Shown here: in pieces, positions 1 through 64,000 of the stretch
Layout: every line of letters starts with the position of its first letter
Numbering within the stretch: position 1 is the stretch's first letter
Source: Hormiphora californensis
Lineage: Eukaryota; Animalia; Ctenophora
Assembly (NCBI GenBank): GCA_020137815.1
Contig: CM035362.1
Span: forward strand, 6,319,404-6,383,403
Length of the DNA: 64,000 bases
Reading direction: 5' to 3'
The notes under the pieces: model-generated
Seen by the model: only the letters and a program-made list of their open reading frames with translations
What the model was told of the DNA's origin: nothing
The model's database searches: none
Made by a program: the position numbers and the translations under genes

Positions 1-3000
1 GTAGACGAGGAGGCGTGTTGTCCACAGTGTGTAACAGGTAAGGAGGCGTGCTGTCCACAGTGTGTAACAGGTAAGGAGGCGTGCTGTCCACAGTGTGTAA
101 CAGGTAAGGAGGCGTGCTGTCCACAGTGTGTAACAGGTAAGGAGGCGTGCTGTCCACAGTGTGTAACAGGTAAGGAGGCGTGCTGTCCACAGTGTGTAAC
201 AGGTAAGGAGGCGTGCTGTCCACAGTGTGTAACAGGTAAGGAGGCGTGCTGTCCACAGTGTGTAACAGGTAAGGAGGCGTGTTGTCCACAGTGTGTAACA
301 GGTAAGGAGGCGTGCTGTCCACAGTGTGTAACAGGTAAGGAGGCGTGTTGTCCACAGTGTGTAACAGGTAAGGAGGCGTGCTGTCCACAGTGTGTAACAG
401 GTAAGGAGGCGTGCTGTCCACAGTGTGTCACAGGTAAGGAGGCGTGCTGTCCACAGTGTGTAACAGGTAAGGAGGCGTGCTGTCCACAGTGTGTAACAGG
501 TAAGGAGGCGTGCTGTCCACAGTGTGTAACAGGTAAGGAGGCGTGTTGTCCACAGTGTGTCACAGGTAAGGAGGCGTGCTGTCCACAGTGTGTCACAGGT
601 AAGGAGGCGTGCTGTCCACAGTGTGTAACAGGTAAGGAGGCGTGCTGTCCACAGTGTGTAACAGGTAAGGAGGCGTGCTGTCCACAGTGTGTCACAGGTA
701 AGGAGGCGTGCTGTCCACAGTGTGTCACAGGTAAGGAGGCGTGTTGTCCACAGTGTGTAACAGGTAAGGAGGCGTGCTGTCCACAGTGTGTAACAGGTAA
801 GGAGGCGTGCTGTCCACAGTGTGTAACAGGTAAGGAGGCGTGCTGTCCACAGTGTGTAACAGGTAAGGAGGCGTGCTGTCCACAGTGTGTAACAGGTAAG
901 GAGGCGTGTTGTCCACAGTGTGTAACAGGTAAGGAGGCGTGTTGTCCACAGTGTGTAACAGGTAAGGAGGCGTGTTGTCCACAGTGTGTAACAGGTAAGG
1001 AGGCGTGCTGTCCACAGTGTGTCACAGGTAAGGAGGCGTGCTGTCCACAGTGTGTAACAGGTAAGGAGGCGTGCTGTCCACAGTGTGTAACAGGTAAGGA
1101 GGCGTGCTGTCCACAGTGTGTAACAGGTAAGGAGGCGTGCTGTCCACAGTGTGTAACAGGTAAGGAGGCGTGTTGTCCACAGTGTGTCACAGGTAAGGAG
1201 GCGTGCTGTCCACAGTGTGTCACAGGTAAGGAGGCGTGCTGTCCACAGTGTGTAACAGGTAAGGAGGCGTGCTGTCCACAGTGTGTAACAGGTAAGGAGG
1301 CGTGCTGTCCACAGTGTGTCACAGGTAAGGAGGCGTGCTGTCCACAGTGTGTCACAGGTAAGGAGGCGTGCTGTCCACAGTGTGTCACAGGTAAGGAGGC
1401 GTGCTGTCCACAGTGTGTAACAGGTAAGGAGGCGTGCTGTCCACAGTGTGTAACAGGTAAGGAGGCGTGCTGTCCACAGTGTGTAACAGGTAAGGAGGCG
1501 TGTTGTCCACAGTGTGTAACAGGTAAGGAGGCGTGCTGTCCACAGTGTGTAACAGGTAAGGAGGCGTGTTGTCCACAGTGTGTAACAGGTAAGGAGGCGT
1601 GCTGTCCACAGTGTGTAACAGGTAAGGAGGCGTGCTGTCCACAGTGTGTCACAGGTAAGGAGGCGTGCTGTCCACAGTGTGTAACAGGTAAGGAGGCGTG
1701 CTGTCCACAGTGTGTCACAGGTAAGGAGGCGTGCTGTCCACAGTGTGTAACAGGTAAGGAGGCGTGCTGTCCACAGTGTGTAACAGGTAAGGAGGCGTGC
1801 TGTCCACAGTGTGTAACAGGTAAGGAGGCGTGCTGTCCACAGTGTGTCACAGGTAAGGAGGCGTGCTGTCCACAGTGTGTAACAGGTAAGGAGGCGTGCT
1901 GTCCACAGTGTGTAACAGGTAAGGAGGCGTGCTGTCCACAGTGTGTCACAGGTAAGGAGGCGTGCTGTCCACAGTGTGTAACAGGTAAGGAGGCGTGCTG
2001 TCCACAGTGTGTAACAGGTAAGGAGGCGTGCTGTCCACAGTGTGTAACAGGTAAGGAGGCGTGCTGTCCACAGTGTGTAACAGGTAAGGAGGCGTGCTGT
2101 CCACAGTGTGTCACAGGTAAGGAGGCGTGCTGTCCACAGTGTGTCACAGGTAAGGAGGCGTGCTGTCCACAGTGTGTCACAGGTGTGTACGGATGACAGA
2201 CTTGGCCCGTTTTGATGGAATTCATCATTTCCAATTCCTCGATCTAAGCTTCTAGGTTCTTTAATGTAATTTCATTATATCCAGTACCGAGTTCCCCCTC
2301 ATATTCCCACCCTCCTAGTAGGCTCCTAGGCTCCCACCCTCTTACCTAGAAGTTCCCACCAGCTAGAGAGTGGAGTTAGAAGAACCTCTTCCCTCGTATA
2401 TTTCCACTCATATAGTCCTCTATAACCCTCATATATTCACAGATTGGTTGGTTGCCCGTAACGACAAGACAGAGTTCACCAGTAAGGTTGGAGAGTCAGT
2501 AACTCTAGCTGTAGACATCCACCTCCCCATCAAACTTCCATCCAGGAACTTCAAGTGGGAAAAGAGGAGGGAGAGTGACGGTCTTATGGCCAAGAAATTC
2601 GAGTAAGATCTATATTTTCACCATCTGTAGAATATGAAATGCATACATTTTGATCATGATCACCAGCACAAACCTAGTCTTATAGTTCCCAGGAACCGAC
2701 TGACACAAGTAAAAAACCAATCAGAACTCGTTATTTAGGTCACGTGACTGGTTATCAGCCAATCAGGGACCAGTATTTCCTCTCACATTTCCCCTCAGCA
2801 TATCCGATGATGGGACATCTCTAACTATCAATGATTTGACACTGTCCGATGAGGGAGGATATAGAGTTAGAGTTTGTGTTGACAACAGTAACTGTGGAAG
2901 CATTGAATTCAGTCTGAGTGTCACGCAGAACGTGCTAGTTCCTGTTAATGCGGTAAGAACCAATCAGATCTCTCCGATAGACTGTCCAATAGACTGTCAC

Positions 3001-5771
3001 GCGTGATGCGAGACCGGCAATTATAGCTGCGCAGCTGCGTGAATCGCCCCTAAAGGTGTCAGGTGATATAGAATTAAACAATTTGAATCATTCTCCCAGC
3101 ATCAAATCATTATTAATATCATTCTCCCAGCATCAAATCATTATTAATATCATTCTCCCAGCATCAAATCATTATTAATACCATTCTCCCAGCATCAAAT
3201 CATTATTAATATCTTTCTCCCAGTATCAAATCATTATTAATGTCTTTCTCCCAGCATCAAAAAATTTGTATCATTCTCCCAGCATCAAACGGTAACAGAG
3301 TTGGAGTCCGTTACGTTTGAAGTTGAGGTGTTTGTGGAGCCTCAGCCGGAATGGCAGCATCTCATGTGGATGTCAGAGGCTGACGGAGACATGTTACCTC
3401 CAAAGAGCGGTAAGGAATGACAATACATTATTGTACCTGTACTGTTGTAATAATGGTTTTTGATGAGCTGATTTAAATTGAGTGTAATTCTCCACATCCT
3501 TGTAGGTCGAGTAAAGGCAGGAAATTCCCGGAGGACAATCACCATCAGTAGCATTACAAAAGAAGATGAAGGTAAGTAGCCCATTAAAACATATAGTCAT
3601 TTTATATATCCAAAATTGGTATGCCATGCACAACATCGCACAACATATCTCTTTCTGTCTATCAGGTCGATACCAGTGCCGTTTGACCCTGGAAGATGGT
3701 TCAGTGTACACAGCGGACTTCAAACTGACAGTAAAAAAGAGTGATGAGGTGATCCTATCTCCTGTAGAATCACCTGTCACAGCCCTGCACAGCAGCACAG
3801 TGACACTCGCAGTGAGTCATATAGATGTGCAATGTGTCAGTATACAGTATATTTGCCAGTATACATATTTCATGTGATGTGTCAGACCATGGATCATGTT
3901 GTAAACATGGTTATTTCGTAGTCACAATTAGTTTTCTGTATAATAATAACATAATGCAATAATAATTCTTGTTCTGTACGGTCTTCTTTTAGTATTTTCC
4001 AACCCAATTACAAATTTCCATTTTAGGTCAAAACAACGATAGCAAATGTTCCACCTAATTCCTTTACCTGGATTCGTAACGAGCAGTACATTAATCCTGA
4101 CAGTGGGGACAACAAGTACAGGTAACATTGTTACCATAGCAACACATAGCAAACTCAACGTGTTACCATAGCAATTTACCATTGTTAGTAAGACTCTAAT
4201 TTGGAATGCTAACCCCCCTACAATTTCTATGACTATTAATTTCACACAAATGTTATCACATCATTCCCATAGGTTTGCTAACTACAGAAAGGGCCTAGTA
4301 ATTAAAGATGTAACAGCGGCTGATGCTGGCGAGTATACTGCTCAGATGATGTACGGGAAGATTCACGAAAGGGCTGTGGTCCGTCTTATAGTCAGTTGTA
4401 AGTTTTATGAAGGAGTAAACAGCTTTATGAAGTAGTAAATAGCTTTATGAAGGAATAAACAGTTTTATGAAGAAGTAATTAGGTTTATGAAGGAGTAAAT
4501 AGGTTTATGAAGGAGTAAACATGTTTATGAAGGAGTGAACATTCACATTTTCCCAGCTGCAGAAGTGAAGATAGTGGCGGAGAACACTCCACTAAAAACA
4601 GTTGTCAACCAGAACGCTCACTTCCTGGTTTCTATAACGAGCAGTACTGGCAGTGTACCCTGGAAGACTATCGACTGGTACAAACTAGACGGTAATAACA
4701 CAATTTAATACTCGTTATAGCTGGTCTTGAACTTTATTCCTCGTAGGATTGAGTAACAAATAGAGTACATAGTCGCTAGACAATATGTACCTTATTTTCT
4801 AAATATCCATGTTTTCAGGGGCGGGTAAGCGAGTAAAGAAGTTAACACCTCCTGATAATGTGAAATACGCTACACCCAATTACAGAAGGAAACTTACCAT
4901 CAGAAATGTGCAACTTACTGACCAAGGTATTACATTCAATGCATTCCTTTATGTTCGGGTGGGTTTCTAACACTCATTCTGATTCAGACAAATGCAGATT
5001 TATAAACTTCTTTAAATGCAGATTAGCTACCTCTAATCACCTACTACTAATTACACCTCTAATCACCTACTACTAGTACTACTAGTACTAATTACACCTC
5101 TAATTACCTACTACTAATTACCTACCTCTAATTAATTTCAGGATTGTACGAGGTAGAGGTATCTCTCTAATCACCTACACCTCTAATCACCTACCTCTAA
5201 TTAATTGCAGGATTGTACGAGGTAGAGGTATCTCACCAGGGAGTTAATTACACCTCTAATTACACTAATTACCTCTAATTAATTGCAGGATTGTACGAGG
5301 TAGAGGTATCTCATCAGGGAGTTAATTACACCTCTAATTATCTCTAATTACCTCTAATTAATTGCAGGACTGTACGAGGTAGAGGTATCTCACCAGGGAG
5401 TTAATTACACCTCTAATCACTTACTACTAATTACACCTCTAATTACCTACCTCTAATTAATTGCAGGACTGTACGAGGTAGAGGTATCTCTAATTACCTA
5501 CCTCTAATTAATTGCAGGATTGTACGAGGTAGAGGTATCTCTAATTACCTACCTCTAATTAATTGCAGGATTGTACGAGGTAGAGGTATCTCTAATTACC
5601 TACCTCTAATTAATTGCAGGATTGTACGAGGTAGAGGTATCTCTAATTACCTACCTCTAATTAATTGCAGGATTGTACGAGGTAGAGGTATCTCACCAGG
5701 GAGTCAAAGTTTCTGAGAAAATGCAACTTACCGTTCTGGAATCTACCTTCCAAAGCTCCAGAGAGGAATAG
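1..5771 (+). CDS. 3' part of a multi-exon gene: end of a VWC-type Cys-rich domain followed by four Ig-like domains (probably secreted/ECM protein)
   Basis: Phase-consistent GT-AG exons <1-37 (VDEEACCPQCVT; CCPxC is the VWC C-terminal motif), 2443-2602, 2799-2952, 3283-3409, 3506-3571, 3666-3811, 4027-4121, 4273-4397, 4557-4691, 4819-4926, 5671-5771 (stop TAG). Ig F-strand motifs: LTINDLTLSDEGGY, ITISSITKEDEGRYQC, LVIKDVTAADAGEY, LTIRNVQLTDQGLY. Confidence 0.85.
8..2185 (+). repeat. 33-bp minisatellite x66 = last 28 nt of exon + GTAAG donor
   Basis: Unit gaggcgtgYtgtccacagtgtgtMacag|gtaag; first GT at 38, last at 2183 (65 x 33 nt apart). Confidence 0.97.
2690..2781. mobile_element. Short dispersed repeat family A (MITE-like, ~110 bp); other copies 8109-8184, 8463-8530, 17244-17328, 59645-59752, degenerate 61752-61808
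   Basis: Shared core aaccaatcagaactcgttatttaggtcacgtgactggttatcagccaatcagggaccag; the fullest copy (59645-59752) has inverted ends aggaaccgaccga / tcggtcggttcct. Confidence 0.85.
3088..3290 (+). repeat. 31-bp tandem repeat carrying 7 copies of the splice acceptor + first 7 exon nt
   Basis: ttctcccag|catcaaa with AG ending at 3099, 3130, 3161, 3192, 3223, 3254, 3282; only the last continues into unique exon. Confidence 0.9.
4403..4540. repeat. ~21-bp tandem repeat filling a short intron
   Basis: tttatgaaggagtaaa(c/t)ag repeated ~7x directly after the donor at 4398. Confidence 0.85.
5030..5703 (+). repeat. Compound tandem repeat with 9 copies of acceptor + 24-33 nt of the last exon
   Basis: ctctaattaattgcag|gaYtgtacgaggtagaggtatctc with AG ending at 5141, 5210, 5288, 5367, 5466, 5517, 5568, 5619, 5670. 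Confidence 0.92.
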
Positions 5772-6052
5772 AACCCACATGGTTCCATGACTACAAGATC
5801 ACGTGTTGAGACAAGAGTCCATAGCAACACGTTGCTACAAGACAGGAGTCCATAGCAACACGTTGCCATGAGACGGGAGTCCATAGCAACACGTTGCCAT
5901 GAGTCAAGACTCAAGAGTCAACACCAAACACTCAATGTATATTCAGTTAGAATCAGACTCTTTATACAGGGATGAGATTTGAACCCCTTTTTTAATTCAG
6001 TCCATCCTTATCCAGCTGAATGTACGAATTACAGGAACCTATTTGTAACAAT

Positions 6053-7948: not shown

Positions 7949-10900
7949 ATGTTTTTCTGTCGAAGTAGCAAATCAGTTTCCACCAATGGGGAGCTGCAGG
8001 GTGAGGATCAGCACTGTGGAGAGGAGTGGGTACCGGGGTCGGTGGCTTACACCTTCCACATTAGAACTGGATTTGTGTACCCCCAACTAGGAGCAACACG
8101 GTAAGCGCCAGGAACCAATCAGAACTCGTTATTTAGGTCACGTGACTGGTTATCAGCCAATCAGGCACCAGTATTTCTCGATTCCCGCAACTAGGAGCAA
8201 CACGAGATAATTGACACGCGTTTTAGGGGGTAATCGCGTTTTAGGGGGTCTGAGGGGGCTTTAATTTTGCAATCTGATTTGTTTGCTCCTTCATAAAATA
8301 TAATGTTGCTCCTTTAGAAAGTGGGACGATGGGACGATGGTGCTGGTAGTTAACCCGGGGAGTAAAGATAGTGAGTCCCAGGAGCTGAGAGTTAACAGGA
8401 CCTTTCATACAGATACTGAGTGGGCCACCATTGCTGATTTCTGGCTGCCAGAACGTATCGGTAAGTAAACAACCAATCAGAGCTCTTTATTTAGGTCACG
8501 TGACTGATTATCAGCCAATCAGGGGCCACTATTGCTGACTTCTGGCTGCCAGAACATATCGGTAAGTTGTTCGACCCTGTTTAGTGCATTAGAACATATC
8601 GGTAAGGAAGCAATCTACAATTTGAGGCTATAGGGCACGGCTTTGATAGTGATATTCCGAGTTATTCTAATAACTAATTGCTGTCTATAAAATTTGTCCA
8701 ATATAACCGGCCATACTACTATTCTATATCATGCTATCAAGGGAATTTTATGCAAAAGGGAAATTTATGCATCAAGGGAAATTTATGCAAATTTTATCAT
8801 CCAGTTCTCTGCAAGGGTTCTGATGCTAGAAGGCAGTGCTACGACAACCAGTGTAAAATGACTCATTTGTTGCACACCAGGAGAGTGAGGGAGGACACCC
8901 AGGACTCTTGGAGAACAGAAGAGAGGCATCGGAAATCCTTTGCACATGCGGTTGATGCGGCAGATACCGCGTTTAGACCCAAGCGACAGAGGAACATGAC
9001 AGCACCTGAGAAACGGGAGGAACCTGTGACCAAGGAGTTTCTACTGGAATCCCTGGGGAAAATCAAAACCGAACCTCCTCGTAAAGAGATACAGAAGGAG
9101 AAGAAGAATGAAGCCATCACGAAGGATTTTTTATTAAACATCTTGGAGGACATGAAAACAGAAATAAAGCAGTCAGTGGTCCTACAGCTGATGGAGTTCA
9201 AGACTCAAGTGGTGGATCCAGTGGCGGGGAGCAGAATACCTGTTTGGGGGTCAACAGGAACGCACCCGATGTTTCACAGTTTCACCTCTTAAACGCCAGA
9301 AGTTTTTGCCCATCAGAGGAGTCCACCTGGAAACTTGAGGTGGTACGTGATATGATGGATGCAGAGACCACCCCTGTGGCGTTTCTAGGAATAACGGAAA
9401 CCTGGTGGAGAGGGTATATGGCGGAGGCCCAGCTGCAGATTTCCGGATATAACCTGGTGAGATGTGACAGGAAGGGTAGGATTGGAGGAGGATGCGCCCT
9501 CTACATCCATTCTAGCCTCGCTATATCGGACCAGGTGGAGTATTCCGACAACAGCAATAACCTAGTGGCGGCCTACATGGGTGCAACCCACTCAATTGCG
9601 GCAGTTGTGTATCGTGCAGGGTCGGACTCAACCGATTTCCAGGAACTGGTGAATAAACTGCAGAAATTTGTAGAATTGCATAGCCAGGATAAAACCGTAC
9701 CAGATATTTGGGTGATGGGTGACTTCAATCTCCCACTCCTCAAATGGAAAGGAGGGGTACGGGAAACAATAGACCTACCTTTGTATAATGTTCTAGGTCA
9801 TTTTGTAGACAATAACTCTCTAAGTCAAATGGTTGATTTTCCTACCAGAGGGGAGAACGTCTTGGATTTGGTACTAACCAATCGTCCCGATTATGTTCTT
9901 TCAACCAAGTGTGAAGACCTGGGGATTTCCGATCACGAGATGGTAACATGCACCTTGACGTATAATAGTACGGAGAAGCCCCCCACCGATGATAAGGTTA
10001 GGTCGGACTTTGCGGAACTGAATCTTCTGAAAGCTGACTACGACAGGTTAAACTCGGTTTTCGATGAAGTGGACTGGAATCAGATGCATCTTCTGTGTAC
10101 AGAGTTGGAAGACCCTGATGCTGGCTTCTTAGAGCTAGTTAGGCTCACTGTTCTTCAGGTCTGCAAGATGTTCATTGAGCCGAAGCGATGGAAGGGAAAA
10201 CGGAAGGACAAAACTCTCCGGCACCTCCGCAGTCGGAGAAGAAAGTTAAATAAGAGACTGGTAAATGCAACAGGCAAGATGAAGTTCAAATTTGAGGAGC
10301 TTGTCGGCGGAATTACCCTTGCTATTAAAGTACATATTAAGGAAAAACAGCAGAACGAGGAAGAACGAGTCGCTTATGCAGTTAAAGGAAATCCTAAATT
10401 TTTCTACAGCCATGCCAAGTCGCTGTCTAAGGTCAAATCAACAGTTTCACCTCTAACGACACAAGATGGATCGCTTACCACCGACCCCAAGGAGAAAGCC
10501 GAGATCCTACAGAACCAGTATGTGAAGGTTTTCAGCAACCCATCAGAGGTGGATCCGGAAAAGGCAGTAGAGCACATCACAGAAGAGGAAGCCGAGATAA
10601 GCGACATCAGCTTTACGAAGGAGGACATAGAGCGGGCACTCAAGGAGCTTAAACCGAACTCAGCGGCCCCTCCTGGTGATATTCCGTCCATCGTTCTGAA
10701 AAACTGCCGCAAAACCTTGGCCTATCCAGTATGGGTTATATGGCAGTCCTCGTTCCAGACCGGTACAATACCCTCCGTTATGAAGGAACAGTTTATTTGC
10801 CCTATTTTCAAGAAAGGGGATCGATCAATAGCTGGTAACTATAGGCCGGTATCATTGACTTCGCATCTTTCGAAAACCTTCGAAAGAATTGTCAGGGATC

Positions 10901-13900
10901 ACCTAACTGAGTTCCTAGAGAGGGCAGAGCTGCACTGTAGTGGTCAACATGGATTCAGGAAAGGGAGAAGTACGATGACCCATCTTCTCGCACATATAGA
11001 TAGGGTTCTCAAACATTTGACGGACAACAATGAAGTCGATGTTCTGTACCTAGACTTTCAAAAGCCTTCGACCGAGTTGATATCGGGGTCTTACTGCGAA
11101 AGTTACAGAAGTATGGGGTGAGAGGAAAGCTACTGCTTGGATAAAGAATTCCTCACCAATAGGAAGCAGCAATACTAGTGGATGGTGAGCAGTCGCGGTG
11201 GGAATGGGTCATAGCAGTGTTATCCAAGGAAGCGCGCTTGGACCTATCTTGTTTATTTTCTACGTAATTGACTTGAAGAGTCTTTGCTAAGCGCCGACGC
11301 CTTGTCTTTTGCTGACGCACACGAAACCATACAAGTTATACGGACACTACTTGACCAGGCTGAACTTCAAAAGGACCTAGGAAGTGTGACTCGGTGGTCA
11401 GTCAACAACAACATGAAACTCCACGAGATAAGTTTCAACTGGTTAATTATTCGCTTGTAGTCAAAGCTGTTGAGAGAACTGCCCTTCACTGCAGAAACGT
11501 ATCATATGTTACAATGGGAGGAACCGTGGTCGATCCAGAGCAGCATGTAAAGGACTTGGGGGTCTGGCTATCTGCAGATGGTACATGGACTCATCATATT
11601 GGCGATATTGTGAGGAGAGCAACATGATTTCAGGGTGGATATTTTGTGCTTCAGGAGTAGGACACCAGAAGTACTACTAACCTTGTACAAGGCGTTAGTT
11701 CGACCCATACTGGAAATATGTTGCCTGGTGTGGTATCCAACCAAAATCGGAGATATCCAGGCGGTGGAAACGTCAACGGGCTTTCACCGGAAGATACAAG
11801 GGATGAAGGATCTGGACTATTGGCAGCGTCTTGAGGCGCTTGACCTCATGTCCCTTCAAAGGAGACGCCAAAGGTATGAGTTAATCCACGTTTGGAAGAT
11901 CTATCAGGGCTTGTCCCCAATTGTGTTGAAATGGAGTTCCAGACGGGTCGGCTGGGAGTACACGGCAAAAACCCAGAAATATCCATACTGGGCAGAAGCT
12001 AAACGGGCCAGCCAACTATATAATCCTTCAGCTTTAGGGCACCTCGGTTATGGAACAAACTCCCTAAAGAGGTTAATCTTTCAGAAACACTTCCGGGTTC
12101 AAGGCAAACCTTGGTGGCGTTCATGAAGGAATTCCATGACAGACCACCGGTGCGTGGCTATATGACAGTCCTTAATGAGTTCAGCGATGCAGAAAGAAGA
12201 CCGTTATGTGAAGCTGTAATTGTTGTTTGCTGCTGACGCTGTTTGTGTTTTACTTTGAGTAAGAGACTGTAATAGACATTTTGACAAAGGAGACCCACGA
12301 GATGGGAATTCTGCACTATATGTTTGTATTGTGTGTAATTTATTTGAATTTGAATTTGAATTTGAATTTGAATCCCTTGGATTTTATCTCGAATCTGTTT
12401 ATAGGTGCATTCTATCTATCTCTATTATAGGTGAGCCAAAGTTGCTGAAAATCCGTTTGGAGTCCCACAGGTTCGAGGTCATTAAAGAGGAGCTCTATGT
12501 AAAGGAAATATCTGTGCGATACAACCGAAAATCTTACAGGTATACTAATATATCATAGCACTGGCAAGTGCCCCAGGCCCAAAAGGGGGGTTGATTTATT
12601 ATCATACAGGTATACTATATATTATTATTATTATTATCATTATTTAGTATAAGATTTGACACTTGCACTTTCTGTATAAGCCTCCATTACAGGAAGTAAT
12701 TTTGATATCTCCTTCTGGTGATCAAACACACACACACGCCCTCTGTACAACAGTTTAATGGGGAACCTCACACATACACGGGCTGAACTCGGTTAAGGAG
12801 AGATTAATTAGTATTCTGAATAATGAGTTCAGAGCAAGAATTAAATAGGAAGAAATCGAAAAATACTGGTTTGACCGGGAATTGAACCAGGGACCTCCAG
12901 AGAACTGCTCGAGATAAACCACTAAGCTACCAACCCTATGTACTGATCGCATTTCATCGCTATATTCAAGCTAAGGGCGAGCTTGAATATAGAGCGATGA
13001 AATGCGATCAGTACATAGGGTTTGGTAGCTTAGTGGTTTATAGCTCCGAGCATGTCTCTCTGGAGGTCCCTGGTTCAATTCCCGGTCAAACCCAGTATTT
13101 TTCGATTTTCTTCCCTATTTAATTCTTGCTCTGAACTCATTATTCAGAGCCTCCATTACATTTGTAAAAGATTCGCCGTGCGAGTAAGGCAAGCTATTTA
13201 TATAGCTTGGATATATTTTGAGTCCACACATGAATTGGGTACAATATGTGTTATCGGAGTTGTGCCCGACCTTGGGCACGTCGCGCCCCTCATGTTCACG
13301 CGCCCGTAGGGCGATCCCCTCACGGGGCTTGCCCGCTACGCGGGCAATGACCGACCATGACCGATATGAACCATTTTAGAGTAAAATGTGGTACGAGTAC
13401 GACAAACTATATACAAAGACTAAAAAATAGAAACTATCGTAATACATAATAAACGCTACCACTAATATAACTCAAGGGAGACGGTCCTGTGACCGTTCCC
13501 TAACCCTAACACATATTGTCAGTGTTCATCACGCGGCTAGTCATACCCCACACACTCTAAAAGCTCTCCTGAGTTTGTAGCTCTGAGAAGTGAGCAGTCC
13601 AAACACCGCATTATCCTCCCTCTCTCGCCACGTGTTGCTCGTGCCTCCCACGTCTGTAGACATAACAACCCATGTTATGAGACATATATCGTATATGAAA
13701 ATAGAAGGAGGGGGTTATGAACATATAATCCCGATAAAATATGTGGTTTCAGGTAGGAAGGAGGGGGGTTAGAAAGGTGTTTTCAGGTAGCTCCTACTAA
13801 CAGTATATGTTTTCAGATTCCCGGTAAGGAACTATTTGTACCCCTATCACCCATCAAGAAAGAGCTCAAAGATCACTGATAGTCGCTGTCCACCCTACCT

Positions 13901-16900
13901 ACTGGCACAATCAGGTCCTGGGACAATTAAACATCTCACTACTGAGGACTTCCTTGTCAAAGCCAGGGGTTAGTGCGTTGTAAAGCCAGGGGTTAGTGAT
14001 AGTATGGATAGTATATCGTACTGATGACATTAGTGCGTTGTAAAGCCAGGGGTTAGTGCGTTGTAAAGCCAGGGGTTAGTGCGTTGCAAAGCTAGGGGTT
14101 AGTGCGTTGTAAAGCCAGGGGTTAGTGCGTTGCAAGGCCAGGGGTTAGTGCGTTGCAAAGCTAGGGGTTAGTGCGTTGCAAAGCTAGGGGTTAGTGCGTT
14201 GCAAAGCTAGGGGTTAGTGCGTTGCAAAGCTAGGGGTTAGTGCGTTGCAAAGCTATAGGGGTTAGTGTGTTGCAAGGCCAGGGGTTAGTGGTAGTATGGA
14301 TGAAATACAGGGTGGGTGGTGCGTTGCAAAGCTAGGGGTTAGTGTTGCAAGGCCAAGGGTTAGTGGTAGTATGGATGAAATACAGGGTGGGTGGTGCGTT
14401 GCAAAGCTAGGGGTTAGTGCGTTGTAAAGCTAGGGGTTAGTGCGTTGTAAAGCTAGGGGTTTGTGGTAGTATGGATGGTTAGTGCGTTGCAAAGCCAGGG
14501 GTTAGTGCGTTCAAGCCAGGGTTAGTGCGTTGCAAGCCAGGGTTAGTGCGTTTCAAAGCCAGGGGTTAGTTCGTTGCAAAGCCAGGGGTTAGTGCGTTCA
14601 AGCTAGGGTTAGTGCGTTGCAAAGCCAGGGGTTAGTGCGTTGCAAAGCCAGGGGTTAGTGCGTTGCAAAGCCAGGGGTTAGTGCGTTGCAAAGCTAGGGG
14701 TTAGTGCGTTGCAAAGCCAGGGGTTAGTGCGTTGCAAAGCCAGGGGTTAGTGCGTTGCAAAGCCAGGGGTTAGTGCGTTGCAAAGCCAGGGGTTAGTGCG
14801 TTGCAAAGCAGAAAGCTAGGGGTTAGTGCGTTGCAAAGCAGAAAGCTAGGGGTTAGTGCGTTGCAAAGCAGAAAGCTAGGGGTTAGTGGTAGTATGGATG
14901 AAATACTATGTGGAGACAGATATTATTCATAGCAGCTGGAATCACATGGAAGCTAATCCCAAAGCAGCAACATGTATACTTGTAACCTAACCATCCATTT
15001 CCTACAGAGCACGAGTTGAATACTATTCGAGGTATGGTACCCTGGGCTAATCAGCCCTCAGAAGAAGAGGAGGAAGACACAACCTCTGGTCAGCTACTTC
15101 AACCCAACTTCACTAGTTGGGAATGATGAGCTGCCACGGTTTTTACAATTCAAGGATGCCTCGGTGAGTAACCATAGCAACACGCTGTAACCATAGTTAC
15201 CAACTAAGCAACAGCAGGCTGTAACACAGTACCAGCAACACGCCCTGTCACCGCACTAATCATTTGAGTGACCGGCTTCCAGTATCCTCGACCTTAGCGA
15301 CATCTTTTCCCCCTTTCAAAATAGTACTTTACTTGTATCAGCCGTGGCCTGAACCTGAGGTTCAGGCACGATTGTTTTCCCCCAATAGGCTAGGAGTGTT
15401 TATCAAGTGGCATTGCTTACCGTATTTTTGGAGGGCGAACACGGTCTGCTTTAGTTTCTCGGTCTGGGGCTGATCTTCTATTAACTTCTTAATAACTATT
15501 GTACCTGCTGGCTTTTTCTTGTAAATCTGGTTAATTGGTCAGCGCACAGAGCATGCAGCATTACGGTCAAGTCCCCTTTCAATCATTTGAGTGGCCGCAG
15601 CTTCCGGTATTCTTGCTCTTTAACAGTCCGTCATACGCATAGCACTTTACTAGACTCGGATCAGCTATGTTGGTTAGGAATTTACAGCCCTATTACGAGC
15701 TGTATAGGGGGTTGAGGGGTAATTTCATTACCAAAATCAGCTGAGCAGTGTTTTGGTTAAGCAGCATGCTGAATGAGGGAAAACAATCGTGACTGAATCT
15801 TAGGTTCAGGTCATGGCTATTTACACCTGGGACCTGAGGTCTCAGGGCTATTCTTGGCTATTTACTGAAAATTTGCATGAAATCTCAGGGAATAGCCGTC
15901 ACTGCACTGAGCCCTGAGATCGGAGATCTTAGTGGTAAATAGCCGTAACATGAGATTCAGACTGTTTCCTCCCAATAACTTACATCAGCTGGTTTTCTTT
16001 ATCATCAGATTCAACAAGCACTGCCTAACAGACTGGACACAAAACATAGTAAAGTTAAACACCACAGACTAACAACCAACCCACTTTACGACAAGCACAA
16101 TGCAATGTCATCTCTAATCGTTCCCCCCCCCCTCGAGTGCGGAAATTCGAGATTTCCAGTTTGCCCAGCTCGCCCCTTTCTAAATATGTACAACTTTTTC
16201 ATATTTTCCAGTGAGTAAACCTATAACTGAAAAAGTTCCCCATCTTTTTCAGTAATACGTGGTTTTGCACGGGTAAAATTAAAGGATAAAATTACCAATC
16301 ACCCCTATTAATTACCCATCGAAACTTACGAACTTTCCTGCAGATAGGAACTTCACTATCCCACTGCACTCCTCAGGTTACAGGTCCTCTCAGAGATACC
16401 GTCTAGAACATGCTTCTTCTGACAGTTGATGGTCACCGTCTTTCCTGGATCTGTGTCGTTCCAACTTTCTTGCACTGATCCATCCATACCACAGTACCCG
16501 GGCATTTCACTGATGGATAGAGTGGATGGAATATCGATTAGTCATAATACCTGAATACCACTTGTGACATCCCACACATATACATTAATATTGTACATAA
16601 CATCACCATAAGTATAATGCAGTGCAACTCTTCATTACTCAGCGTAGTGATGACTGTTAATAACTCCTTCATTACCTGCAGCACGGTAGCTGTCTGATGC
16701 GGTGTCATAGGAGCCAAACATTATCTTCTCCACTACATCTCCTCCCCACTTGGGTACACAGCCAATATCACTACTGTTACTGAACTGGTAGTTCAGTACC
16801 TCCACCCCATTACACTCTATCCTGAGGGTGGTGGTGTTCTTTCTAATTGTCCAAATCTTGTTCACTCCCTCTGGTGGTTGTACTGGGAGGGAGGTCCATC

Positions 16901-27807: not shown

Positions 27808-27961
27808 CTCAACTGCAATTGCTATGACAACATTGTGTAATGATCTGTGTTAACCCGTCTGAGTGACATCTTCACAGGGTCGATAATTATGGCTGAGATT
27901 GATTGTGTTTGTAAGGTAAATTGTCTATTATAGGGTTAAAGGGGGAATATCCATGCTTCAG

Positions 27962-58100: not shown

Positions 58101-61100
58101 TCCTACTACCATGATCCCATCATTATAATATTGGCACCATGTGTCTCCTACTACCATGATCCCATCATTATAATCTTGGCACCATGTGTCTCCTACTACC
58201 ATGATCCCATCATTATAATATTGGCACCATGTGTCTCCTACTACCATGATCCCATCATTATAATCTTGGCACCATGTGTCTCCTACTACCATGATCCCAT
58301 CATTATAATCTTGGCACCATGTGTCTCCTACTACCATGATCCCATCATTATAATCTTGGCACCATGTGTCTCCTACTACCATGATCCCATCATTATAATC
58401 TTGGCACCATGTGTCTCCTACTACCATGATCCCATCATTATAATATTGGCACCATGTGTCTCCTACTACCATGATCCCATCATTATAATATTGGCACCAT
58501 GTGTCTCCTACTACCATGATCCCATCATTATAATCTTGGCACCATGTGTCTCCTACTACCATGATTCCATCATTATAATATTGGCACCATGTGTCTCCTA
58601 CTACCATGATCCCATCATTATAATCTTGGCACCATGTGTCTCCTACTACCATGATCCCATCATTATAATCTTGGCACCATGTGTCTCCTACTACCATGAT
58701 CCCATCATTATAATATTGGCACCATGTGTCTCCTACTACCATGATCCCATCATTATAATCTTGGCACCATGTGTCTCCTACTACCATGATCCCATCATTA
58801 TAATCTTGGCACCATGTGTCTCCTACTACCATGATCCCATCATTATAATATTGGCACCATGTGTCTCCTACTACCATGATCCCATCATTATAATCTTGGC
58901 ACCATGTGTCTCCTACTACCATGATTCCATATCATTATAATCTTGGCACCATGTGTCTCCTACTACCATGATCCCATCATTATAATATTGGCACCATGTG
59001 TCTCCTACTACCATGATCCCATCATTATAATCTTGGCACCATGTGTCTCCTACTACCATGATCCCATCATTATAATCTTGGCACCATGTGTCTCCTACTA
59101 CCATGATCCCATCATTATAAGATTGGCACCATGTGTCTCCTACTACCATGATCCCATCATTATAATCTTGGCACCATGTGTCTCCTACTACCATGATCCC
59201 ATCATTATAATCTTGGCACCATGTGTCTCCTACTACCATGATTCCATATCATTATAATCTTGGCACCATGTGTCTCCTACTACCATGATCCCATCATTAT
59301 AATATTGGCACCATGTGTCTCCTACTACCATGATCCCATCATTATAATCTTGGCACCATGTGTCTCCTACTACCATGATCCCATCATTATAATCTTGGCA
59401 CCATGTGTCTCCTACTACCATGATCCCATCCCTAGGTGGGGTGTGGAGGAGCCAAGGAGGGTCCAGATAGTTGGTATCCCTGCATCTCCTTCTGGTGTCC
59501 TCAACCGATACAGTTAGTTAATGTGTTTGTGCTATATTCTTGGCTATAATTCCCTGAACATTTCTCTGAAATCTCAGGGAATCCATAGCCTCAGGTTTCA
59601 GGGGTAAATATCCTATCACCATGCCAGCAGCTACTAACGAACATCAGGAACCGACCGAATCAGGAAATGCTGGTCCCTGATTGGCTGATAACCAGTCACG
59701 TGACCTAAACAACGAGTTCTGATTGGTTGATTATTTGTGTCGGTCGGTTCCTAACGAACACATGGTTTCAGCTCGTCTGGCCAGCCTGTCAGTTGAGATC
59801 CCAGGTCGACAATGCTACATTATCGATTGTACCAACATACCATCCCTCTCCCTGGTATCCCTATCCTACCTCCTCTCTCATGATGGCGTTGAGAAAGTGG
59901 TGTTTGACTCTCGGGATCTTGTTGATTGCTTGGAAAGGTAATGTTGTATTGTTGTGTGAGCTTTTAGATACTGGAAAAACCGTCGAAGGCTCCTGTTGTT
60001 TTTGATTTCCAATGTTACAGAAATTGTATGAAATTCTTGGACTTTGATTACTTGCCCCATATCTCAATTGACTTTACATACATTCCCTTCATTCCTGCAG
60101 TCGTTATGATCATGGGCCATAATTCACGGAAATTATTATAATTTTACATTGTCTTCTTCTCCACCCAGACAGTACGATTTAACGTTATCCTGTCTATTGG
60201 ATCTCCAGGCTTGTGAGTTTGCCCTCCGGGGTGTAGTCCCCACCAAGGTAACTAGAATCTCTTCTTCGCACTCCGTATCTTGAATACTGCAGTAGCTATG
60301 TCAGAGCATTAAGGTAAATTTACCTGACCCTATTAATTATTATCGTATTTGCGAAAACCGCGGTCACACTGGCCTGACAGCTTCTGCTAAATATATTCTC
60401 TATTTCTCTAATTCGTTTCCCAACAGGCCCCACTACCATGTGATGCTATAATGAAGGGAGGTTCAGTTAGTCGTGTTGTACAACGAGATTCCCTATTTGC
60501 GGAGGGGCAATGTAGACGGCACTACCTCCCACCATCCTCCTCCTCTACACAAGACTCGACCACCCTCATCTCAACCCATACTTCTCACCACTCCTTCCTA
60601 TCTTCTCTCTACTCCGTTCTTTTGGAAGGTCCAACCACAGCCCCAATCCTGCCCCGTTCATATCTCAGAACCATCTCCCACCGACACAGCAGACTTCATA
60701 CAGACAAACCAACACGGAATGGTGATCTGTTCGATACCCACAATAGGATTTACAGCCACGTTATGACACGTGGAGCTGTGCTGGCTGTGATTGGTTGCGG
60801 TGTGTGTCATGTGATGCAGCCTGTGGACGGGTTTAACGATACTGAGCTGTATCAAAATAACAGGGGTTACCATGGTAACCATGGTAACAACAGTAACCAT
60901 GGCAACAGTGAGATCTACAGGTCATTAGCCGGTAGAGGAATCAGTGGACCTGTGTGTAAAGTGTGTAAAGTAATAGCAGAGAACGAGGAAAGAAAGGCAA
61001 TGACGGTGGGAATGGGAGATAAGAAAAAGAAAAGCTGCATGACATGTTTTTGAAATGTGGTGCTCCTTCATCAAATAATTTATGTTTGGCGGAATTTTGA

Positions 61101-63508
61101 AATGTGGTGCTCCTTTATCAAATTATTTATGCTTGGAAATTTCTTGGAAATTGTGTTGAAAGCTTCAGATTTTATTTTGTAAAACTCACATACCTTGTGT
61201 TTTTAAGCTGTCAGTTTCCCGTGGCGACTCTAGCGGCCCTGAAATCAGTTATCAAACTTAAAGGTCTCCGGAGAAACGACGATAGAAACATTTAAAGGTC
61301 GTATATATCCTGTCTGGCGCCGCGACCCATCTGAGAATCAAATGGGGTATGGCGCCGCCATACAGTATATATCAAGTAATAATATAGTAAGCTGTACCAT
61401 ACCAATCTATACCACTCCTGTTATAGCTCTAGGGACTAGGGTCTACCGCACCAAATGAACTCACAGTTGCTACGATGCACTCACGGTTGCTAAGGGTGAT
61501 TGTTAGTCGCCTATTTCCCTCCTCTCGAAACAGAACTGACATGTAATATACCATAATGACAACTGAAAAAGAGAATGTTATTGTCATTTTGGAAGTTATG
61601 TAGCCTTGATTGACTCTCCCTTACCACACCTCGGTTTAAGGGGAAAAACAGTCGTGCCTGAACCTTTTCCCCCTGAAGGAGGGTCAGAAAATAGTTTTTG
61701 CTTTTTTCTGATACAGCAGCTCATTGGAAAATAAAAGAAACAAAGTTCACATCCAATCAGAGCTCTCCATTTAGATCACATTACCAAATGGTGGGCCCTG
61801 ATTGGCTAACTGTTACCTATGGGAACGGCGATGTAGACGAGAGCAGTGAATCCCAGTGATGTCCAGGATCTGAACACAAATCTCTCAAAGCAGCCCCCTC
61901 GGACAGGATCATATCCGTATTCATCTCGCGGGTTCAGACAAATAACATCCTCGTCTTGGGGGATGTTGCCACCACCTACAAATACTTGGGTTTATATCCA
62001 CTCTATGTAAGCAAAATCTATTTATTCACAATATTATGTTGAGTAGTAGTAGGTCAGTTTCGACCCCCGTGAAATAGCTCAAGCATCGACATTCTGAAAT
62101 GTACACAATCTCAGCTTTCCAATGCGCACACGCTCATGCTTCAACTCCATCGGGAACCGCTGCCAAAATTGTTGGTTGTTTTAAGTTTTTACGTGACACA
62201 CAATTACACACAGCAGCAAGTGATATACTCACTGTGTATTTATCTACCTGGTTCATTCTCCAGATCCTGGTTGTCATGGTGGTGATCAGCACACAACACA
62301 GATAAGAAGGGGTAAAGTTGGGGAATCAATGACACAGTCCATCCAGACAGTGCAACCTTCTTACTGAGCGATACCGCCAGCAGTTTCCTGATATCTGCAG
62401 GAAGTTGTTTAGAGGTATTTTAGTTTTAGTTTAGGGTTTGGGACAAGAACTATAGAAGGCCAATGCTCTGACAGATAGAACATATTTTATGGTTCAAAAA
62501 GTAGGGTAAACCGGGGCAATTCGAGCAACCGGGGCAATTCGAACATAGTACTGCCCGTCTCTCACCTAGTTAAGCTATCATAATGACGTCATCCTATCTC
62601 CAGAAGAAAACTGCTCGTTCGAGCCTGCCCGTTACCACTAAATAGGCTCTAGATCCGGTTTAAGTTGGTCAATTTCCGATTTGAAAAAACCAGCTGAAAG
62701 CTAATAATATCAGCTTTCAGATGGTATAAAAATTATTTAAATATTCGCATGTTTTCATTCCAAATTCTGGTAAATTAAGATTACCGGGGCAATTCGAACA
62801 ACCGGGGCAATTCGAACATGGGCAATTTGGTTAACACACCGGGGCAATTTGGTTAACTCCCGGGCCAATGATGTGCAGTTCTTTGTACCACGTGATCACG
62901 CGTGATACCGGGGCAATTCGAGCAAGAACGACCAGCGTGTAGATTGCGTGTAGATTACATTGTTCGAATTGCCCCCACCTCTAACAACACCAGGCGGGAA
63001 TCTTCTTCTGGTGTTGTGAGGACGTTCACGTGACTCCCACGTGACGAAATAAAGCACTCCTATTGGTGATGCTCGAATTGCCCCGGTACCAATTTTTCCG
63101 ACCAAAATTTTTCAATTAGTTATTTAGTTAAGTAAATGATGGTCCCTATAGTTGAAATTTATCTTATTTGAAAGATAAAATAATGAACTTTTATCCTATA
63201 TAATTTTTTTCATTGTATCTTTTTTTAAATGGGAGTGAGAACCGATTAAGTAAAAAGTTAACCATTTTGCCCCGGTTTACCCTAAGTTGTAATAAGTAAG
63301 AACTTTATAATTGCAGTATATACCTGAGTAATAGTAGTAATAAAGTACCTGAGTATTAACAGTATAGTAATAGTATAGTAATAAAGTACCTGAGTATTTG
63401 TACACCAGGATATCCAGTATTATCAGGATGGTGTGAAGGGTGTAGAGGGTGGTTAGGTAGATACTGATAACACCCATACTGTAGCACCACAACCTACCCA
63501 ACTTCCAA
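31195..63508 (-). CDS. Rhodopsin-class (family A-like) GPCR, TM3 to C-tail; 5' exons lie beyond the window
   Basis: Phase-consistent exons 63508-63390 (WKLGRLWC...TLHTILIILD, ECL1/TM3), 62394-62248 (GWTVSLIP, TM4), 61975-61817 (ECL2 Cys, VYIAVP), 61562-61485 (VVIMVYY, TM5), 33301-33211 (LIGIYFLTMSP, TM6), 32460-32297 (SSLLVPLSY, NPxxY-like TM7), 32115-32034, 31914-31716, 31341-31195. No frameshift needed. Confidence 0.8.
32475..33013. repeat. 14/23-bp quasi-palindromic minisatellite in a GPCR intron
   Basis: attctggattccag and attctggactctgcag units; ctgga-t-tccag is self-complementary; ends ~13 nt from the acceptor at 32461. Confidence 0.93.
33319..38796 (+). mobile_element. Full-length L2-clade LINE (ORF1 with zinc knuckles; APE-RT ORF2, disrupted)
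   Basis: TSD gaggttattgt at 33308-33318 and 38797-38807; (ATT)n tail; ORF1 33510-34754 with CYHCQGFGH and CFCAGSH; ORF2 LNVRSL, QETF, LDMSAAFDTVDH, GVPQGSLLGP, YADD, SRIDYSN; frameshift ~35830, stop ~36869, RTE insertion. Confidence 0.95.
37250..38005 (-). mobile_element. 5'-truncated RTE-clade LINE fragment inserted in the L2 ORF2
   Basis: TSD gcctgtgtg at 37241-37249 and 38006-38014; removing it restores LNACV|RFIY; encodes GLHINGSKTKYM, FVYLGS, LYGSETW, GRP; short gtcaagtaagt tail. Confidence 0.93.
39070..61053 (+). CDS. EXD1/Egalitarian-like 3'-5' exonuclease (DEDDy-fold) domain protein, probably catalytically degenerate; nested antisense in the GPCR intron
   Basis: Phase-consistent exons 39070-39179, 59436-59512, 59772-59937, 60169-60247, 60427-61053; RLASLSV...CYIID...LLSHDGVEKVVFDSRDLVDCLERQYDLTLSCLLDLQ matches the pattern L.LLQI..YLFD..LLES..I.KV.HD.R.D..L..QY.I.L..VFDTQ. 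Confidence 0.72.
41473..44973 (-). CDS. LINE ORF2: APE endonuclease + reverse transcriptase + C-terminal Cys/His motif (1166 aa)
   Basis: SWNIHG, LQET, GDMNAR, VVDY, SDH; FIDFRKAFD, GTEQGHVTSP, WADD; KLRTSTHRLKIETGR..RICDDC..DEWHMLNEC. Confidence 0.95.
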   Translation of the reverse strand: MKSNSQGAPEANSCTLNIVSWNIHGIKDANLGPKTNCHEFLAQLGGSHVFLLQETKGSVEVDSYICHNKTRPNPRSGGLTIGVHSTIAAHTKLIKTDHEDLLALRISRKITGTGKDLTIINVYDSPPESSYKKKWAGTSEERDTLHDLSQLLLSLRQTEILIAGDMNARLSGLNTIPPTQHISDDILSSGDPSYKQLRTSKDTVCNDRGAKLLDCLSSAELTILNGCTIGDLTGQYTCHTYNGASVVDYIIASDSIRCSTRSLKVRPLLPLSDHCPIEVTLNTKTTLKSATAQRKFINLPDAPRQTKWKDTTAQLLKERQMKDSDAISGLIRTTCNCRDDVYTMNQKISDLLAAQLKSTEPAGDKKKKHKKRYTKSKWYDKECDILRFETNRLARAQGKGKTANPRIKDLYHQQKRLYRRTMRNKKSQLKQNLSSRILSSKTLNWDTIEELKQQFDQKEELSISHMTDFHSFFNQLYSKNQNEKTDTWKADIHTKINLQSDLESALNQPICTNDVEKAIKDLKRGKSPGIDGIPNELLKEACPNTIQLLTHLYNQCLEHGVYPWNTTVITPIHKKGPKHDPNNYRAIAVGSSLGRVFSAIYLERLVNFRKTHCPDPPNQQGFVKGAQTSDHLLTLHTAIQKGIQNKGRLYTCFIDFRKAFDGLNRDALLLKLLNLGVRGKFFNVLDHMYNNSKARLKLAQKLSDLIDIQIGTEQGHVTSPELFKCFLLDLSTILNDKDLESDPVALGTALVTHLLWADDLVLMSTSAKGLQKLLDALYRFCSDWDLTVNTEKTAIMVFNQAGRKLKESNSFLYGDSHIPSTKTYQYLGLTFSVNGNLREAQKQLRIKSMRSIFAIKRIVDIRSISKQAALKLFDALVAPVAGYASAIWLHETRFLKTSLNGKHVKTTSKDIWDDQTEKCQTSFLRWLLGLRKNTPLPPLYGDTDRVPLAVRNSKHLLDFHNRLCIMSNSLDNQSKLVVHAYNEQKRLQLPWYQSVLRTSEIFDSNAHHPQKTLLPNSQLVQARISDWFWTQWDDIRHSNRKLEFYNSVKTGHGFEDYLERRTAPDFIKLRTSTHRLKIETGRHNKTDRSERICDDCSSPESIPLLRALPFFDPIIQDEWHMLNECTRTKSARDRLTDQDRTSLRGHVFPSHINHHLSHLIHTIINP
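44963..48730 (-). CDS. LINE ORF1 with coiled coil and degenerate SGNH-esterase-like C-terminus (true start may be the Met at ~47635)
   Basis: Heptad-rich segment LSLERKMDS...LQELR; IVLHVGKED resembles SGNH block III (GxND); N-terminal part is a 45/27-bp tandem repeat (47690-48550). Confidence 0.75.
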   Translation of the reverse strand: MTAKRTRAARGAPTPAPAPNIPLADPPPSGRFCAHDVFNFSAPAFSAPTIATPSRLPSPHHSSSLRCSSPGSPLPLHTCSLRCSSPGSPLPHHTSSLRCSSPGSPLPHHTSSLRCSCPGSPLPLHTSSLRCSSPGSPLPHYTCSLRCSCPGSPLPHHTSSLRCSCPGSPLPHHTSSLRCSCPGSPLPHHTSSLRCSSPGSPLPLHTCSLRCSSPGSPLPLRCSCPGSPLPLHTCSLRCSCPGSPPPHHTSSLRCSSPGSPLPLHTCSLRCSFPGSPLPLRCSSPGSPLPLHTCSLRCSCPGSPLPHHTSSLRCSSPGSPLPLHTCSLRCSSPGSPLPLRCSSPGPPLRSLHLRPQPNTLLILLLLMVLPGLSFNVSWLSGSGKSHSSTFIDTEPVPEEQTTPTKAKPDAEFITPQATTPHLSNTTPQATTPRLSNRYLSRKRTCSEHSMDGSILDNIGQDTPSRNEPAYSQLDSRGPVYDPKTNTQILFKSTETDFLDTIDLLSIGRQISHDLMEIHGNNTLNSKCKLNIRTASNDCPKIYKDLISALLNTRQSIYPDIPGDDWNNLTIISTYSRENEVKFVTANDVLTIVHIGRSQTVQYKSKYNIVDAPLDKISALFINPKHRSSVKVITSSSSEESLDFHYWIVPTFRTPIQNPIPPAVEPESIGHTTDSARETTAQASDETNDPKPETRVTITPEEKDPDCATESTTTKEISPETSSEVATPDSPNQIIFEPDSKNFIKKELATNIITSASKKTLKKLCEAADHTFTDILDARMLLLKDLDSIFEETSRPSAKFCRAMLEQLTSTAVNLELDRLEIESSVNTVAFKRTLLVKHWCEDSESTPHTASQKPITAASLKKSSRKQQIKAPTNQQKVGESSEHTNGNRQEDVAKQPAQPESSKDIIIKLMEERLLSLERKMDSMSAAMVASDNGTELLLRESETKIKNLQKSVEDQQKLLQNQQLLINQLQTTTNNLNQALEKCTKDLQELRPTPSNHQPSYNSRRRQGSTRPDQSTTSSGNTTPNTISPHMRQPNAQPPTQRGTTTASGDLAPSKPKCFIAHGAEMDAFDRTLFSKSFDIETHKIASLEEAKTEPSNPSELQKAIRKHRPGAIVLHVGKEDILKKLKDKQPISAEIEILKSVVKGILQNTPSKICVSLPIPAPKLPSLDASIKNWNLQISRFITELRKNPAFTNRVFTINNARIGEHTTTQVATDSGIESIPTEHGGKKLWLNLREGLNRMTNPNHKRRPHNEE
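57003..57337. mobile_element. 335-bp palindromic MITE inserted in the satellite, 2-bp TSD (CT), CCC...GGG termini (CMC/EnSpm-like)
   Basis: cccccataaaaaagtcgcttggcaaattccctcgtcgctcgg... mirrored at the right end over most of its length; satellite gtctcct|actacc is split with CT duplicated. Confidence 0.92.
62504..63282. mobile_element. Non-autonomous DNA transposon with TA TSD (Tc1/mariner-pogo type)
   Basis: TIR gggtaaaccggggcaa / ttgccccggtttaccc flanked by TA; many internal accggggcaattcga sub-repeats in both orientations; no transposase ORF. Confidence 0.85.
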
Positions 63509-64000
63509 CTGGAGGGGGTGGGTGGAGGGGGTGGGTGGAGGGGTGGGTGGAGGGGTGGGTGGAGGGGTGGAGGGGTGTGTGAAGGGTGTAGAGGGTAGTT
63601 AGGTAGATACTGATAACACCCATACTGTAGCACCACAACCTACCCAACTTCCAACTGGAGGGGGTGGGGTGTGGAGGGGGTGGGTTGTGGGGTGGGTGGA
63701 GGGGTGGAGGGGTGTGTGAAGGGTGTAGAGGGTAGTTAGGTAGATACTGATAACACCCATACTGTAGCACCACAACCTACCCAACTTCCAACTGGGTGGA
63801 GGGGGTGGGTTGTGGGTGGGTTGTGTGTGGGTGGAGGGGTGTGTGAAGGTGTGTAGAGGTAGTTAGGTAGATACTGATAACACCCATACTGTAGCACCAC
63901 AACCTACCCAACTTCCAACTGGAGGGGTGGGGTGGAGGTGGGTTGTGGGGTGGTGGGAGGGGTGGAGGGGTGTGTGAAGGGTGTAGAGGGTAGTTAGGTT
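63432..64000 (-). repeat. ~137-bp tandem repeat (>=4 copies, runs off window) = acceptor + ~75 nt of the GPCR TM3 exon
   Basis: Minus strand ccctccag|ttggaagttgggtaggttgtggtgctacagtatgggtgttatcagtatctacctaactaccctctacacccttcacac repeated; only the copy at 63508 continues to the donor. Confidence 0.93.

Follow-up and report, generated by a model that had tools for sequence, protein, structure and literature searches.

Tandem decoy copies of splice junctions in introns of the ctenophore Hormiphora californensis, with silent-site differences that suggest exchange between working alleles

We analyzed a window of 64,000 nucleotides from the ctenophore Hormiphora californensis (assembly GCA_020137815.1, contig CM035362.1, positions 6,319,404 to 6,383,403 of the forward strand; positions below are counted from the first letter of the window), in which splice junctions have been copied in tandem into their own introns, either as the end of an exon with its donor or as an acceptor with the start of its exon. 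The copies carry splice signals of full strength, vary between samples, and differ from the exons from which they were copied mostly at silent sites, and spliced products from other samples or from relatives contain each junction once. These junction arrays are a real feature of the genome and a known kind of repeat, to which the window adds a density and a mechanistic clue. We favor, at a probability of about 0.5, the reading that they are minisatellites of the kind called 'mirages' in amphioxus, which are tolerated by splicing of the exon-adjoining copy and which originate and are renewed through unequal DNA exchange with working alleles. We infer exchange between alleles rather than a splicing-driven system.

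Three gene models comprising 33 introns and 65 junctions were used, from which the second, nearly identical lipoxygenase 3' end was excluded; a first-pass annotation of the window had counted roughly 40 introns. Two of the genes, a VWC/immunoglobulin (Ig)-domain gene and a lipoxygenase gene, hold 27 of the introns and have a spliced relative (proteins P0002 and P0001, respectively), and the other 6 introns belong to gene 3, which is predicted only. Copies were recovered at all 12 sites listed in the first-pass annotation, at about the numbers given there, using Tandem Repeats Finder (TRF) and motif counts that include the real splice site (Table 1). One of the 12, position 8101, had been listed among the donors as an exon-end copy, and this copy contains no GT and so does not span the junction. 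Units spanning an exon-intron boundary of their own gene were found at 12 of the 65 junctions, 9 of them in the genes with a spliced relative, and apart from 8101 the AG or GT is kept in the copies. The proposal that the units are local copies of their own junctions and otherwise unrelated held up, as the TRF consensus units do not resemble one another and each matches its own junction, and the shared sequence and termini of a transposon or introner family are therefore missing. It was also confirmed that the unique exon adjoins the terminal copy. When scored with a matrix based on the first two genes (27 introns), the decoys, as we call the copies, equal or exceed the real sites. The acceptor array at 24666 was counted as 61 copies with a strict motif, 69 decoys, or 76 TRF units, and its interior units are unlike its first and last units.

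The exon parts of the decoys at 13 sites were compared with the real exons, which yielded 16 distinct variants: 12 synonymous, over 64 sites, and 4 non-synonymous, over 241 sites. This silent bias is significant against neutral decay (P = 6e-6), and also when a synonymous share of 0.33 is expected (P = 0.0007). Of the 12 variants that are confined to some of the copies, 9 are synonymous, and two of the four non-synonymous variants yield the residue found in P0001; the copies of donor 8461 carry His, the residue in P0001, where the real exon encodes Arg. In the donor array at 38 only two exon positions vary, both synonymously, and the first and last copies differ at both of them while interior units show all four combinations. 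Two silent variants of array 24666 co-occur in 3 of 69 units and never appear singly. Translation of the decoys cannot explain the bias for most arrays, which shift the reading frame or hold stop codons. A model in which the decoys are old snapshots of the exons that then decayed neutrally predicts that 35–50% of the variants would be synonymous, compared with the 12 of 16 observed, and is rejected at P = 0.001–0.04. The silent bias may be explained most simply if the decoys derive from working alleles.

The arrays were next compared with other samples, for which the read evidence consists of contigs only; the comparison includes the arrays at 3282 and 5670, and copy numbers are those of the assembly. 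In a second sample from another study (X5), at least four junction-spanning duplications that are absent from the window were found at 2917–2955, 3536–3579, 4895–4929, and 3648–3681. The first of these suggests a long array, with a summed depth, which is not a copy number, of 14,764 at position 2929 versus a few hundred nearby. One further duplication in X5 ends at an acceptor (4009–4025), two lie inside existing intronic repeats, and skips within the array at 5670 represent shorter forms. Among the back-joints listed for this sample, four of the seven visible ones span junctions; detection favors joints that are anchored in exons, and these counts were not used for enrichment. Contigs from another organism, B (X9), skip 2987–3279, so that the array at 3282 is missing there, and they share the intron-internal 20-base-pair (bp) array at 4401. 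Array length is thus polymorphic between haplotypes, and given the extra duplications in X5 and the missing array in X9, junction arrays come and go quickly.

The favored reading, mirages maintained by exchange with working alleles, can be set out in four steps. First, repair or recombination between homologs would start in a conserved exon and slip at the intron edge, where the similarity between alleles drops, sometimes by way of a short templated insert. A related ctenophore has a heterozygosity of 3.2% and many non-coding indels, according to the available text of its report (PMC8527503), and such a step in allele similarity is visible in sample X1: one contig equals the window over 4579–4914 and a second contig has 26 differences and 14 gaps, with four of the five listed differences in a 127-bp intron and with introns 5 and 6 partly replaced, making this second haplotype close to the window in exons and distant from it in introns. 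The copies at 8101 and those at 8461 are separated by a piece of a high-copy element, which on our reading fits template switching. Second, the survivors would be events after which the first donor or the last acceptor is still intact, and duplications within exons would be purged. Third, two copies could expand and contract like any minisatellite, and fourth, exchange with a working copy would import silent allelic variants and remove damaging ones; minisatellites may mutate by conversion-like events (PMC3356730, as far as its available text goes).

The strongest competing explanation, which we consider rather unlikely, is local duplication that is blind to position and followed by survival, whereby exonic duplications are purged, introns are so short that many survivors cross a junction, and the decoys are neutral snapshots of older exons. 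The density of copies was measured against background with one rule for all positions, under which a 14-mer crossing the position must recur within 300 bases with one mismatch allowed (an echo). Echoes were found at 12 of 65 junctions (18%), at 7 of 32 donors and 5 of 33 acceptors, and at 0 of 540 positions in shuffled introns, so the copies exceed sequence chance. As background we used the 9838 intron positions that are left once junction-array sequence is removed and transposons and a nested gene are masked; at 654 of them (6.6%), a local duplication starts or stops. The junction excess over this background is 2.8-fold (binomial P = 0.001; bootstrap over introns, 1.2–6.7), compared with 5.8-fold without masking, and is 2.3-fold when only the 54 protein-supported junctions are considered (P = 0.014; P = 0.044 if the per-intron mean is used). 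Across all settings, the masked test based on positions gives 2.3–2.8-fold with P between 0.0005 and 0.04, which argues against position-blind duplication, as does the poor fit of the snapshot model at silent sites. The excess over sequence chance is clear, and only a modest excess is left over the local duplication background; the mutational process centered on splice sites that the first-pass annotation proposed is weakly supported, by a borderline 2–3-fold excess.

The same measurements contain much that fits position-blind duplication. With introns collapsed to a median of 144 bp, 17–41% of random duplications of 20–50 bp would cross a junction; 9 of the 21 events in protein-supported introns do so, where uniform placement in the collapsed introns, with hand-estimated lengths, gives an expected share of 0.10–0.41 depending on unit length. 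Outside transposons there are 12 intron-internal duplication events. Duplicated positions number 329 of 7951 in other non-genic DNA, 22 of 28,396 in three stretches of long interspersed nuclear elements (LINEs), and 0 of 5592 in exon interiors. No echo was found at the 10 unconfirmed junctions of two other predicted genes, the window was chosen for its pattern, and exon-anchored copies would stay recognizable for longer than copies of neutral DNA. In an earlier version of the test, in which the far ends of junction arrays counted as background, the per-intron control showed no excess (P = 0.17–0.35), nor did introns of 400 bp or less (1–3 of 42), a class that long arrays outgrow. Local duplication is frequent in this genome, and there is likely a junction excess, albeit a small one.

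The mechanism proposed in the first-pass annotation, in which R-loops or pre-mRNA at splice sites trigger or template the duplications, appears improbable. Besides the junction excess, it can draw on several donor units that end 2–9 bases past the GT (38, 8461, 21408, and three in X5) and on fragments of the high-copy element that lie right at donors 2953, 8101, 8461, and 61816 and just before acceptor 2798. Donor breakpoints seemed to lie preferentially near the GT, which we do not claim as a result, given the few events and the exon-anchor bias. By eye, the copies run into their own intron and not into the next exon, so spliced RNA was not the template, and the position of the breakpoints relative to the cleavage site varies. 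Survival would equally be expected to leave short intronic parts, and detection in X5 needs an exon anchor. Splicing-linked mutation also leaves the allele-like silent variants unexplained, and with respect to RNA-templated repair in particular, the sequence signature points more to DNA exchange with working alleles.

We regard it as still more improbable that the decoys are used, either in alternative or recursive splicing or as a coding repeat. Array 38 fits such use, being free of stop codons as 65 identical 11-residue units with both of its variants silent, and if its last donor were used, the remaining intron would be an ordinary one of 260 bp. Decoys that score as well as real sites, the unit of the long X5 array (39 bp, also a multiple of three), and the use of two extra donors in human 6-16 and CBS (PMC1557585, available text) are compatible with such usage; the long arrays that tend to be in frame are too few for a claim. 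Against it, contigs of run X7, whose status as RNA is a guess, join 2951 to 3282 and 4924 to 5669 and hence take the exon-abutting acceptors of the arrays at 3282 and 5670 without coding copies between, although X7 itself may not carry the arrays. At the other sites, terminal-copy splicing is based on the proteins of relatives or on prediction; run X14, likewise guessed to be RNA, provided a single repeat match only. P0001 and P0002 align without inserts, and in a third protein, P0003, one VWC-end motif precedes every one of the four Ig pairs; P0003 also matches the first copy of array 38 joined to the next exon. A frameshift results from units of 31, 23, 20, and 137 bp, a stop codon lies in the 51-bp unit, and the units at 24666 vary between 31 and 42 bp. 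The special spliceosome that the first-pass annotation called for is not needed for donors, because experiments on human F7 show that the first of several identical donors is chosen (PMC1557585, available text). Scanning is widely accepted for 3' sites, and the choice of the last among identical acceptors lies outside the tests in the available text of that study.

An assembly artifact of noisy long-read consensus, which would be in keeping with the indel errors at about 17800–22400, the near-identical 2.9-kb duplicate at 27956–30855, and copy numbers taken from the assembly alone, is barely credible, as contigs of X1 (a sample with contigs identical to the window, possibly its source, and hence not independent) cover the arrays at 3282 and 5670 and enter the former without mismatch, X5 shows junction duplications of its own, and the units carry ordered, linked substitutions.

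Several points weigh against exchange with working alleles as the source of the decoys. The silent bias rests on 16 variants, with 7 of the 13 sites having none or being too short, and was noticed by eye before testing; the old-snapshot model is rejected only at P = 0.001–0.04. A decoy difference in X5, 5394 C>T, would create a stop codon and amounts to plain decay. Among the 40 of 244 difference rows covered, exon differences between the two X1 haplotypes look sparse and the decoy variants were not seen in a sequenced second allele, and two alleles alone may be insufficient to supply 16 variants in 305 sites. The X7 contigs, which are only guessed to be RNA, differ from the window by 6–9% in most exon pieces, and the reading frame of gene 3 is predicted only. 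For the junction excess, the selection of the window must be considered, the event count gives P values from 0.0001 to 0.53 over the range of unit lengths (0.016–0.26 for units of 30–40 bp), and such borderline enrichment may make the allele-slippage step unnecessary.

The remaining features of the window are listed with the arrays in Table 1. The Ig/VWC model is free of internal stop codons and shares 383 of 410 residues, in a gap-free alignment, with P0002, which was found with an exon of this gene and which EukProt assigns to Pleurobrachia bachei; this match marks the window as Pleurobrachia-like and closely related. X7 contigs bridge 8 of its 10 introns, and its VWC-end-to-Ig join is the same as in P0003. 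As the P0003 homolog consists of four near-identical VWC-Ig-Ig modules, the gene may continue upstream of the window with a VWC domain. Behind its stop codon lie tandem repeats at 5807–5903 and 6054–6302, and the 31-bp one of these has fewer units in an X5 contig. In the lipoxygenase gene, 13 of 17 junctions as first placed align across the join to P0001 and junctions 4, 5, 6, and 14 align on one side only; junction 4 was later shifted by 2 bases in a region with indel errors. The duplicated 3' end (25044–27935 and 27956–30855) is either an assembly duplicate or a very recent duplication. A minus-strand predicted gene is nested at 16330–17460 inside lipoxygenase intron 5 and has a long exon with stops in the frame check, probably from indel errors. 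No relative was found among 19 pattern matches in a metagenome scan with P0001, and for gene 3 no homolog was found among 3 candidates and the one exon tested had no Pfam match.

Table 1. Junction arrays and other features of the window
Feature	Position	Strand	Description
Donor array 38	8..2184	+	33 bp x66 (30 exon bases + GT + 1); first donor at 38; read-through stop-free
Acceptor array 3282	3080..3290	+	31 bp x7; real AG 3281-3282
Acceptor array 5670	5123..5695	+	51-79 bp units x9; real AG 5669-5670
8101 copy	8080..8205	+	17-bp exon-end copy without GT, behind high-copy-element fragment 8113-8184
Donor 8461 x3	8422..8607	+	High-copy-element fragment 8463-8528 between copies 1 and 2
Donor 12540 x2	12531..12618	+	Absent from the first-pass list
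Donor array 13969	13958..14889	+	23 bp x about 33 (32 motif hits; TRF 33.7 units)
Donor 21408 x2	21392..21502	+	15 exon + 9 intron bases
Acceptor array 24666	21721..24687	+	31-42 bp units x about 70-75
Acceptor 27638 x6	27149..27681	+	Unit lengths mixed
Donor 61484 x2	61459..61492	-	20 bp; junction predicted only
Donor 63389 x3	63330..63399	-	Junction predicted only
Acceptor array 63509	63430..64000	-	137 bp, at least x4, to window end; real AG 63510-63509; junction predicted only
Intron-internal array, for contrast	19547..20740	+	39 bp (TRF); spans no junction
Other intron-internal arrays	4401-4542, 17790-18486, 26350-26459		No junction spanned
VWC/immunoglobulin-domain gene	1..5772	+	11 exons (first truncated at window start), 10 introns; Ig domains; matches P0002, P0003
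Lipoxygenase gene	7949..27807	+	18 exons, 17 introns; PF00305; tblastn and junction alignments to P0001
Gene 3, predicted multi-exon membrane-protein gene	60850..63508	-	Prediction by eye
Second copy of 25044-27935	27956..30855	+	98.5% identity, 9 mismatches, 32 gap openings, mostly one-base

The high-copy element is about 110 bp long with inverted ends and occurs at 2691–2781, 8113–8184, 8463–8528, 17243–17328, and 59651–59765, with fragments at 2958–2972 and 61750–61807. Its summed depth in DNA runs is very high. In several cases, a copy or fragment begins no more than about 10 bases from a donor, or its end lies immediately ahead of an acceptor. A metagenome scan with its core returned one 1.2-kb contig, L001, which matches the window only in this element. 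A 45-bp satellite at 39246–41324 and 48854–59430 (46 and 234 units) is split by a 7.5-kb minus-strand LINE-like element that carries its own 48-bp repeat (47716–48563). Another LINE-like element at 33700–38450 is interrupted at about 37260–38030 by an opposite-strand fragment of a different reverse-transcriptase element. The intron-internal arrays at 19547–20740 and 32475–33014 end about 13 bases before the acceptor AG without crossing it. A palindrome-forming 9-bp unit recurs at 4128–4175, 19547–20740, 31358–31383, 31833–31863, 31975–32030, and 60865–60906, in introns as well as in predicted coding sequence (as Gly-Tyr-His repeats), and several of these arrays end 10–20 bases before an acceptor.

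A broader extension of the allele-exchange reading is possible but doubtful: in hyper-polymorphic animals, the drop in similarity at exon edges would drive junction duplication genome-wide, such that about one-fifth of junctions per haplotype would carry decoys that differ between individuals, and exchange would keep the untranslated decoys under purifying selection at the protein level. If this were true, it would explain why mirages recur in lancelets and ctenophores and would amount to thousands of natural experiments on how splice sites are chosen, as well as a permanent reservoir from which new introns could arise. The observation that decoys resemble working alleles rather than decaying copies would, if it held genome-wide, name the mechanism, and a genome with short introns in which splicing still settles on the exon-side site out of as many as 70 equivalent ones would bear on exon versus intron definition. 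For work on ctenophores, such decoys will also be a source of error in predicting genes and mapping reads.

Descriptions of mirages, each for single genes, date back to 2002, and the one in Adh3 is reportedly unstable in somatic cells; the window adds a very early-branching animal lineage, a controlled density, and fast turnover. Cases of intron gain by tandem duplication have reportedly been published as well. The repeat type itself has been described before, as amphioxus mirages (PMC3087553, PMC3902484) and human junction minisatellites (PMC1557585), in the available texts of those papers. A full-text search by title and abstract start, with most subscription papers outside its coverage, found no ctenophore report, genome-wide test, or silent-site bias, and the available text of the Hormiphora genome paper (PMC8527503) makes no mention of junction arrays. 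In the segmental duplications of the human genome, variable internal tandem repeats occur at exon-intron boundaries (PMC2812944, available text); these and the intron-gain cases resemble the junction arrays in that local duplication across splice signals changes gene structure, but they make new introns or isoforms, of which none were seen in this ctenophore. The human junction minisatellites comprise the 37-bp variable number tandem repeat of F7 intron 7 (IVS7), 6-16, CBS IVS13, LAMIN B2, and PDGF (PMC1557585). As in the window, their first unit spans the exon-intron boundary and the pseudo-donors are identical; the most upstream site is used in the human genes, as is likely in the ctenophore. 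They are isolated donor-side cases in that text, in contrast to the 5 of 33 acceptors and 7 of 32 donors found here, and the F7 unit includes 4 exonic bases of 37 whereas the ctenophore units include up to 30–78. The closest counterparts are the amphioxus mirages of Adh3, the globins BflGb6 and BflGb9, and, added by the later paper, troponin C and PGBD5 (PMC3087553, PMC3902484), whose mechanism was called unclear. As described in the available portions of these reports, they too are tandem copies across 5' or 3' exon-intron boundaries with unrelated units (10–160 bp), a copy number that differs between haplotypes, and a homogenized interior with distinct edge units; splicing stays normal in amphioxus, as is likely here. 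The ctenophore arrays differ from them in their host, in a density of 12 of 65 junctions measured with a background control, in reaching about 70 copies, and in the silent-site bias of the decoys, which those portions do not mention for amphioxus.

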